A program made the position numbers and the translations under genes. DNA of 64,000 bases from Eledone cirrhosa (Eukaryota): positions 368,156,001 to 368,220,000 of the forward strand of contig OZ024741.1 in assembly GCA_964016885.1 (NCBI GenBank), read 5' to 3'. This document shows positions 12,101-15,100 of this stretch, in pieces. The number at the start of each line of letters is the position of its first letter. The first letter of the stretch is position 1. A model generated the notes under the pieces. The model had not been told where the DNA came from and ran no database searches. It worked only from the letters and a program-made list of their open reading frames with translations.

Positions 12101-15100
12101 TAGATGAGGTTTTGTTGGGTGCATCCCACCAGTGCCTGAATATGGTGATATGATGATAACTAGATCCGTTCGCTGAATTAGACTGTGGATAAAATAGCTT
12201 TCTGATCACCAAGTGTGTATATCATGCTTTTTTGTTATATTTGTGATAAAAGACACTGCCTATAATTATTTTAAGTAGGTTTGGGAGACACAACTTAAGG
12301 TCTTGAATAAAATTATGATGGAAGGTCGTTAGATGAAGTTTTGGATCAAACAAATTTCAATACAGTTTACAGTTCTTTATGGTTTTGGTATTTAATGGTC
12401 TCTGTGGAGGGTTAACTTTTGTTTTTCATAGGTTGTTTGTACACCATATTTCTTGTTCAGGGCCATTAAAGTGGCAGAACTGCTGAATAGTCAAATGGGA
12501 TGTTTTGCTGTATTTGATCCAGTTCTGAGATCAAAAGGTGATATGATGATAACTAGATCCGTTCACTAAATTAGACTGTGGATAAAATATCTTTCTGATC
12601 ACCAAATGTGTGTGTGATGCATCCTTTTGGGGGTTTTATTAACACCTTATTCCCTTGTGGAAGTATACGATTACTTACCTCCTTTTGTTTTCACACTAAG
12701 CCAAATAGTGAGAATTGATAATTTTTTTAACCATACTAAAATTGCTGTTTATAAAGTAAGATCAAAGCATGACATTTTCAGTGATGATTCCAAACTGAAT
12801 TTTCTAAAGGATATAGCAATAAATTGTTATATTTGTAAATTATTAAATAAACTACTTAATATAAAATATAAGCAAAACAATTTCCTGTAAAGAGTGCCTA
12901 TTATTATTTTAAGTGGGTTTGGGGTGCGTAATTTAACCCTTTAGTGTTCAAATCGCCCGAAATTATTACCCCTTCATTTGTTCAAACTGCCCGAAAACAC
13001 CCACACTAAAAAATCGTTCTAAAAATAAATAAACCATTTTCAAAATCTCGTTAATTCGAGATTACCGCGGAAATTAACACTTGATATAGTGGAACAACTT
13101 CTGTTTTAAGTTGTTCCACTATATTAAGTATTTGCACCCAGTTGATACTTCAAATGCACCTATAAATTAATTTCACCTCCCCATAAAAGTCAAATTTGAC
13201 CAAAAAAAATCAGCTAAAATTATATAATTGTAAATTATTGATATTTAAACATCTACTGACAAAATTTCAAGCCTGCGCATAGAAAATTAAGAAAATTATA
13301 AAATTGATAACCCTCTTGAGTATGATTAACTCAAAATAATTGTTTCTACTTTAGGCACAAGGCCAGCAATAACCCAGTGCATTACTGGTACTTTATTTTA
13401 TCGACCCCGTAAGCATGAACGGCAAAGTCAACCTCGGCGGGATTTGAACTCAGATCGTAAAGGGACGTAACTATGGAAAGCATGGCGTCCGACCCTCTAC
13501 CGATACTGCCAATCCACCGCCCTAATCATCACTCTAATTCGGAATAAAATTAAAACAATTTAATTTAAGTACCTTAACCCTTTAGCATTCACATTAATTT
13601 TCAAACGTCATGCTTATCTGTTCGTATGATTAACTCAAAATAATGCGAACAGATAAGCATGACGTTTGAAAATTAATGTGAATGCTAAAGGGTTAAGGTA
13701 CTTAAATTAAATTGTTTTAATTTTATTCCGAATTAGAGTGATAGCTATTGAAATGTTATTATGCTGTATTTAACTGTAGATAAAGATCAAGCTTATGTGA
13801 TGAAGACTTTTAGTGACGGGCGGACTGATATCCTAAACACCTGATGATTGTCACTCCTCTGATAGGCTTGTTGATTCATTCAATTATGATTGAAGCTTTT
13901 TAAGAAATTTCAATATGGTTTGAGAGGCCGCTTTACAGTTCTTTATGATTTGGCATTTGATGGTTCACTTTTGTATTTTCCATGTGTGACTTTTTTCTGT
14001 TGTGAAAGAAGCTTAAATGATGAACCTTCAGTGACGGGTGGACTGATCTCCATATTTCTAATTAGAAATACTGCTTAGCTCAAATAATTTTGTGAATACT
14101 CGAGAATTTGTAGGGATTTAATATAGTTAACATCTAATCTAATAACTAACTACTAAGCTGATGTAACTTAAAGCAAGAGTTATCAATAACTCCGATGTTG
14201 AATGCTGTTTCTACACCATATTTCTTCAGAAAAGTACCTGTTTAGTAATTAACCCTTTAGCATTTAAACTGGCCATATCCGGTCAGATTCTCTCATTTCT
14301 TTCTGTTCAAACTGGTCATGACTGGCTGCTTATATTTTCATGGTAAAGCCTTTACCTCATAATATTGTATCTATGAGATTTTGATATTATTTATTTGGAG
14401 AACAATACCTTAACATCAATATATGAGCAGCCGGTTACAGCCAGTTTGAACTGAAAGGTGAGAGAGTTCTGGTATTCTCAAAATATATATCAAAATCTTC
14501 TAGATTCGATATTGTGAAGTAGTGTTTACCATGAAAATGAAATAGTAAATGTAAAGTAATGTAAATGCTGAATAGTCAAACAGGATGTTTTGCTGTATTT
14601 GATCTGGTTCTGAGATTAAAAGGTGATATGATAACTAGATCCGTTCACTGAATTAGACTGGATAAAAATCTTTTTGGGGGTTTTATTAATACCTTTAACC
14701 CTTTAGCATTCACATTGAATTGTCAAATGTCATGTTCATCTATTCGCATTATTTTCACTTAATTATACTCAAGAGGGTTATCAATTTTATTTGTTTGTAA
14801 TTACTTTAATTTTCTATGTGCAGACTTGAGATTTTGTCAGTAGATGTTTAAATAACTATAATTTACAATTATATATTTTTACCTGATTTTTTTTGTTAAA
14901 TTTGACTTTTATGGGCAGGTGAAATTAATTAACAGGTGTAAAAGTAATAACTTTATGGATAAACACAAAAATTTAAACTTTATCTGCCTTATCTGTTAGA
15001 TTTGTTGCAAAAAAATCCAATAATGACCTAGATGCTGATTTCCATCAATTCTAGCAGTTTTCTGAACAGGTGAATTAATTAAAAATGCAGGTGTAATCAG

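Follow-up and report, generated by a model that had tools for sequence, protein, structure and literature searches.

A box C/D snoRNA family in the last intron of RPS23 whose D′ guide probably directs ribose methylation of a lineage-specific 28S cytidine at the SNORD17 site

The RPS23 intron and its snoRNA copies

The window (the whole stretch of 64,000 nucleotides of Eledone cirrhosa DNA analysed here) carries the ribosomal protein gene RPS23 (uS12). Its last intron holds three family A, five family B and three family C copies, all of them box C/D snoRNA families. The family C copies, which are the subject of this report, lie within this intron on the same strand as the host gene. The features are as follows.

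7702..7861, + strand: RPS23 (uS12) coding exon 2, with 53 of 53 residues identical to PDB 9EHO chain YY
7968..8088, + strand: RPS23 exon 3; the 7861-7968 joint is found in contigs of related organisms
8089..19297, + strand: RPS23 last intron, 11.2 kb, containing 11 C/D snoRNA copies
19298..19444, + strand: RPS23 last coding exon, up to the stop codon, with PF00164 and named S23 matches
12143..12211, + strand: copy C1, intact box C/D snoRNA gene, 69 nt
12150-12156, 12173-12176, 12184-12189 and 12202-12205: C1 box C (ATGATGA), D′ (CTGA), C′-like box (TGTGGA) and box D (CTGA)
12163-12172: C1 antisense element, with the +10 G at 12163 and the +5 G at 12168
12536..12604, + strand: copy C2, near-intact paralogue with the outline of C1
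12566-12569, 12561 and 12595-12598: C2 D′ (CTAA), +5 G and box D
14619..14673, + strand: copy C3, broken; guide and D′ (CTGA) intact, +5 G at 14643
8163, 8962 and 10621: family A copies, with the variant box C AGGATGA
10612..10701 (approximate ends), + strand: best family A copy, whose D guide pairs over 13 nt with the 18S A99-equivalent site
9511, 11615, 13797, 14017 (partial) and 18829: box C positions of the five family B copies, of two sub-types
18824..18895, + strand: one family B copy, with a SNORD43-like guide for the 18S C1703-equivalent site

The host assignment is supported at several points. Exon 2 matches the octopus uS12 chain of PDB 9EHO, an entry that the supplement to the preprint on the octopus ribosome (PMC13321053) names, at 110.2 bits, with the next chain at 89.7. 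In contigs of two related organisms exon 2 runs directly into exon 3, contigs X5 and X16 carry exon-4 sequence directly after 8089, and these joints therefore indicate that the main mRNA drops the 11.2-kb intron in one piece. The host exons are also confirmed in three of the four sequencing data sets that were compared with window positions 7650-12800; one run, which we guess to be RNA, has low cover in the bin of C2 and zero in the bin of C1. A side observation is that three C/D families, with 11 copies, sit in a single intron that is spliced out of the main mRNA as a unit. The family C copies are some 7 kb away from the 3′ splice site of this intron, which we count against our best explanation, and a simple search of the 200 nt past the D boxes of C1 and C2 gave no hidden 3′ splice site. 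At gathering thresholds, Rfam gave no match in the window, and none of the 11 intronic copies reached its cut-off.

Judged from their sequences, only one or two of the three family C copies look functional. C1 and C2 have the box C, box D and terminal stem of the box C/D class and are distinguished from each other by several positions; folding gives C1 a stem of seven pairs, and 7 nt separate its D′ box from the C′-like box. C3 lacks this outline. Having lost three nucleotides of box C together with box D and the 3′ stem, it counts as a broken copy, and folding yields no terminal stem. It shares about 80 nt of upstream flank with C2 and is therefore taken to come from a local duplication. The description given in the first-pass annotation, namely ATGATGA, a guide, a G or A, and CTGA in an RNA of about 69 nt, fits C1 exactly, but it does not extend to the D′ box of C2 or to the truncated boxes of C3. 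C2 may be functional, because D′ boxes are the less conserved ones in the zebrafish set (PMC7668251). The G that had been noted five positions upstream of D′ is present in all three copies.

The guide is the constant part of the family, in that its positions 2-16 are identical in all three copies and the flanks vary. With up to two mismatches allowed, the 15-mer TAACTAGATCCGTTC has three matches in the window, at 12157, 12550 and 14632, against a mean of 0.10 in shuffled sequence, and none of 100 shuffles gets to three. A DNA search of the genome with C1 as query returned the three window copies only. The fold z-scores of C1, C2 and C3 (-1.5, -2.4 and +0.6) are modest, as expected of C/D snoRNAs. 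A second guide, next to box D, forms at best 7-8 Watson-Crick pairs that differ between C1 and C2, and no good target was found for it. A pattern search of the genome for further copies or for an A-type guide gave 13 matches versus 5 in the control; ten of the 13 were inspected, and three were the window copies and seven had no box C. Possible compact orthologues in metagenomes (118 loci, 67 distinct strings) had no convincing combination of boxes and terminal stem, and we attribute them to chance.

Other elements share the window. A transposase-like remnant, piggyBac-like by eye, occupies 15221-15928 (- strand) and 16500-17350, has long inverted repeats on either side (near 14700-15130 and near 17480-17940), and sits within the snoRNA intron just past the broken C3. 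A near-perfect hairpin at 13599-13671 arises from an inverted short repeat at the junction of a local duplication; its matches to microRNA models are weak and far under cut-off. Finally, fragmented open reading frames at 43498-44166 and 54497-57362 (- strand) look by eye like non-LTR retrotransposon endonuclease and reverse transcriptase.

The 28S target site and its duplex with the guide

The 28S genes of this genome read GAACGGAUC at the site. Patterns that permitted a U there found C in all 26 distinct places, which are spread over 11 contigs. One pattern, allowing C or T at the site, gave 25 matches, all with C, and none in its reversed-pattern control; the other, anchored on the other side of the site and allowing A, C or T, gave 23 matches, again all with C, and none in its control. 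The tested locus is eukaryote LSU rRNA at 432.8 bits, its C aligns with an upper-case U of the Rfam LSU consensus, and the model draws the site as unpaired, directly before a long-range helix of four pairs. At one locus, L022, where the end of 18S, 5.8S and the 28S landmarks are correctly ordered, the site is C. Two alternatives had been proposed for the G of the guide. Pairing through G·U with a retained U is contradicted by these genes at every place, and a U-to-C change at the conserved site, matched by the G of the guide, is what they contain. Since the site is C in the organism's own 28S, the G would form a Watson-Crick pair rather than G·U.

A pattern accepting T alone found two places, one without rRNA flanks and the other a decayed short 28S fragment (L182) with T at the site, C at +10 and several other changes. 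The site base of this fragment lies within a CpG, and its T may reflect CpG decay or be an old relic. Fifteen rDNA units could be measured at a 28S insertion site that we take to be R2: twelve carry an insert of 1.16-1.37 kb, one carries 3.8 kb, one has a few bases inserted, and L022 is uninterrupted. The working rDNA array seems to be absent from the assembly, and because the transcribed array was not found, we infer the C of the mature rRNA from the genes. At least 24 sequencing runs contain the 28S stretch, with a top share of 0.70, in a match that is not specific to C.

Several features of the rDNA deserve separate mention. The R2-site inserts of 12 copies (L007, L009, L011-L013, L015, L019-L021 and L023-L025) have similar 3′ ends; the 1.16-1.37 kb inserts are too short for a full R2 and are possibly a non-autonomous, R2-dependent element. 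In other 28S copies, different sequences are joined at the same point. A tandem macro-repeat with units of 35-40 kb and more than 40 of them (G000:C28:124.7-126.5 Mb, C178 and C1185; L183-L216) combines pieces of spacer with the 5′-most ~190 nt of 18S and with long tracts in which short fragments of 18S and 28S are mixed; none of the stretches read contained an intact rRNA gene. As a candidate for the missing rDNA it was rejected, having rRNA fragments only and no target site in its 20 + 14 stretches.

In human, fish and yeast, the corresponding base is a U that carries two modifications. Among at least 21 eukaryote-type LSU pieces, recovered from prokaryote assemblies (28 of 64 parts) and presumed to be contaminants, two of them from one contig, the site is T in 21 of 21 and the +10 position is T in 20 of 21. 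Compared with the majority of these pieces over 135 columns, L022 differs at three, two of which fall inside the guide duplex, and this is no clean test because the search pattern fixed 22 of the columns. The Rfam consensus is independently U at both the site and +10. Viral contigs gave no eukaryote LSU match.

The guide pairs over 10 nt with UGAACGGAUC, by ten Watson-Crick pairs in C2 and C3 and by nine plus a G·U at position 1 in C1, and it places G opposite C at both +5 and +10, which are the two lineage-specific Cs. Positions 2-10 thus form nine of nine Watson-Crick pairs with the organism's own 28S, with G:C at +5, and in zebrafish these positions are the minimum pairing (PMC7668251). Within the 9.6-kb rRNA unit, a perfect complement to guide positions 2-10 is present at the site itself and nowhere else, and shuffled 9-mers match anywhere in the unit in 185 of 5000 trials. 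Shuffled 16-nt guides form nine or more Watson-Crick pairs at some point of the unit in 72 of 300 trials, so the argument relies on the register at a named site and not on length, and its strength lies in the base at that site having been predicted ahead of the look-up. The C1 duplex has an energy of -16.0 kcal/mol with C versus -14.2 with U. Neither the one rRNA unit searched nor U2, U4, U5 and U6 (two copies each) contained a longer perfect match.

A predicted methyl guide that probably changed with its target

Human 28S-3797 is Ψm at 100% in the data of PMC6182160, and SNORD17 is listed as its methylation guide in PMC5025248, which bears out the double modification and the guide given in the first-pass annotation. 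We consider it quite probable that family C is a C/D family of the RPS23 intron whose D′ guide acts on the 28S C and likely directs Cm where human and yeast have Ψm or Um. The predicted product at human 28S-3797, which we take to be equivalent to yeast 25S-2347, would be Cm in place of Ψm. By established C/D chemistry, the snoRNA would be released from the spliced RPS23 intron and would assemble with Snu13, Nop56, Nop58 and fibrillarin, and fibrillarin would methylate the ribose opposite +5. Ribose methylation is independent of the base, and pseudouridylation requires U. With a C at the site, the Ψ half is therefore precluded, which leaves any H/ACA guide for it without a function here. A search for guides of the SNORA48/snR9 type, SNORA48 presumably being the H/ACA companion for Ψ at 28S-3797, gave one 28-bit match (cut-off 50; 41 candidates scored), and its control matched 7 of 14 prokaryote genomes.

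Guide and target have probably changed in concert, as far as can be judged from the two sequences. The window holds no record of the order of change, because all three copies carry G. A guide-first path is possible because G pairs with both U and C, and we speculate that the guide changed first, eased by its tandem copies, and then served both rDNA alleles while the C spread through the array.

It is unlikely that the snoRNA pairs with the site without methylating it, as a fading relic or folding chaperone, its G being kept by chance or for pairing. Such a reading would suit a family in which one of the three copies is broken and another has a non-canonical D′ box, and selection at the site may be weak because the yeast site is partly modified and loss of its Ψ has no effect on growth (PMC5062969). 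However, C1 retains canonical C, D′ and D boxes and its seven-pair stem, the guide is invariant across all copies with differing flanks, and the guide matches lineage-specific changes of the rRNA at two separate positions.

Methylation by family C at the 28S site also has to be weighed against another C as the main or additional target, a reading we regard as still less probable. A second 28S site, 70 nt downstream (L022:6079), lies in the linker before a long-range helix, pairs over a 10-nt run with 8-9 Watson-Crick pairs and reaches -15.4 kcal/mol with one more G·U, within 0.7 kcal/mol of the main site. C27 of U5 snRNA offers a 9-nt run with eight Watson-Crick pairs in two of two copies; U2, U4 and U6 (two copies each) form no more than five with the guide. 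Both candidates, however, need a G·U at position 3, the U5 run ends at position 9, and the downstream site varies among the foreign LSU pieces, with the matching 12-mer in 17 of 25 of the organism's own loci. Of these sites, only the main one is known to be methylated and fits the register of SNORD17. Separately, the 18S at L203:6853 and L036, just past the family A target, looks like the family C target with a base added; it has no canonical 2-10 duplex, and as a target we put the likeness down to chance.

It is hardly credible that an unassembled main array still transcribes U and that the guide works through G·U, as might be suggested by the interrupted or partial state of most assembled 28S copies (one uninterrupted unit of 15 at the R2 site) and by the T of L182, given that all 26 places on 11 contigs are C, including L022 with its 18S end, 5.8S and intact R2 site, that L182 has several other changes and its T within a CpG, and that the large tandem array on C28 has no 28S site at all.

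The neighbouring families bear on the preferred reading of a guide that followed its target. Zebrafish SNORD57 reads the 18S A99 site as GCUCAUUAAAUCAG (PMC7668251), and the equivalent site here is GCUCAGGAACCGG in most of 81 genome matches, many of which are satellite fragments. The family A guide follows this changed 18S site, with several compensatory changes relative to zebrafish SNORD57, and on these comparisons it would be a larger case of guide tracking than family C; the copy at 8962 has lost its box D. Because family A also tracks a changed target, guide tracking is a pattern here and not a single event. The 18S C1703-equivalent target of family B is unchanged, its pairing is like that of SNORD43, and the copy at 14017 ends after D′. 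A wider proposal, which we think improbable, is that the octopus-lineage ribosome passed from a doubly modified U, conserved between yeast and human, to Cm via a G·U-tolerant guide intermediate, as one of several guide-tracked changes in core rRNA (more of them being seen in family A), and that this swap contributes to the unusual decoding accuracy reported for ribosomes of octopus.

If the preferred reading of family C is right, the locus is a natural experiment, in which a base change bars Ψ at a site that is fully Ψm in human, yet the methyl guide followed. This suggests that the ribose methyl rather than the Ψ is the part under selection, which fits yeast, where Um is dominant and Ψ loss is silent. 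We do not expect a large functional effect of the base swap. The prediction is directly checkable, since an octopus ribosome structure (PDB 9EHO) exists. The locus further illustrates why cephalopod snoRNAs escape the Rfam models, given that none of the intronic copies reaches cut-off.

In the literature searched, there is no report of the family C snoRNA or of U-to-C at 28S-3797; figures and RNA chains were outside this search, so deposited alignments may show the substitution. The main text of the octopus ribosome preprint (PMC13321053) does not contain 'methyl', 'snoRNA' or 'pseudourid', and its single supplement contains none of the motifs.

Comparison with SNORD17 and other known systems

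Family C resembles SNORD17 (RF00567) in having a D′-linked guide close behind box C, with the same target site and register, and in its first 32 nt, which are near-identical to the Rfam consensus. SNORD17 is also known as HBI-43. The zebrafish entry for LSU_3797 and SNORD17 (PMC7668251) likewise has a D′ guide with a G·U at position 1, as in C1, and differs in having A:U at +5. Family C carries G where the Rfam consensus has 'a' (+5) and 'u' (+10), its target is C and not U, and its host is RPS23 versus SNX5 in human (PMC5025248) and dkc1 in zebrafish (PMC7668251). It measures 69 nt versus 238 model positions, and C1 is without the long D′-C′ insert of RF00567. The description of SNORD17 as a much longer RNA agrees with the Rfam model, which also has 'a' at +5. 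The zebrafish form is annotated at 101 nt (PMC7668251); compactness is therefore a matter of degree and nothing special.

The Rfam model of SNORD17, which had been suggested as a check, did not recognize the family. It is the best match by E-value (0.12) to the 5′ half, at 12.7 bits against a cut-off of 45, and in the wider Rfam comparison it scores 9.4 bits against the same cut-off; over its whole length, C1 has many weak matches to C/D models, the best at 28.5 bits and all under cut-off. Because of the 12.7-bit score, we treat family C as a functional counterpart of SNORD17 and not as a scored member, and the 5′ similarity makes common descent likely. None of 27 candidates scored elsewhere in the genome was a long SNORD17, which does not establish its absence.

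Yeast snR65, together with snR9, serves LSU position 25S-2347 (also numbered 2345), presumably equivalent to the one that family C would methylate, and snR65 is absent among the Rfam matches listed for family C. The yeast site carries 76% Um and 13% Ψm, and loss of the Ψ guide snR9 has no growth effect (PMC5199042, PMC5062969). Whereas yeast mixes U, Um, Ψ and Ψm, the base opposite the family C guide allows only C or Cm.

Zebrafish SNORD34 is a precedent for guide tracking. Its target LSU-2824 is Um in human and Gm in zebrafish, and its guide has kept up through compensatory changes (PMC7668251). As in family C, the methylated base changed and the guide tracked the change; in contrast, that case is confirmed by RiboMeth-seq, involves three compensatory pairs and a base that is not doubly modified, and family C is predicted from genes. 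In vertebrate 18S, U-to-C changes at lost Ψ sites have been proposed to be compensatory (Deryusheva et al., PMC6984369). Loss of Ψ is accompanied there, too, by U-to-C at the same position; those are plain Ψ sites, whereas in family C the change had to be tracked by a methyl guide as well. The principle that guide and target change together is thus already published, and what family C would add is a case at a doubly modified U.
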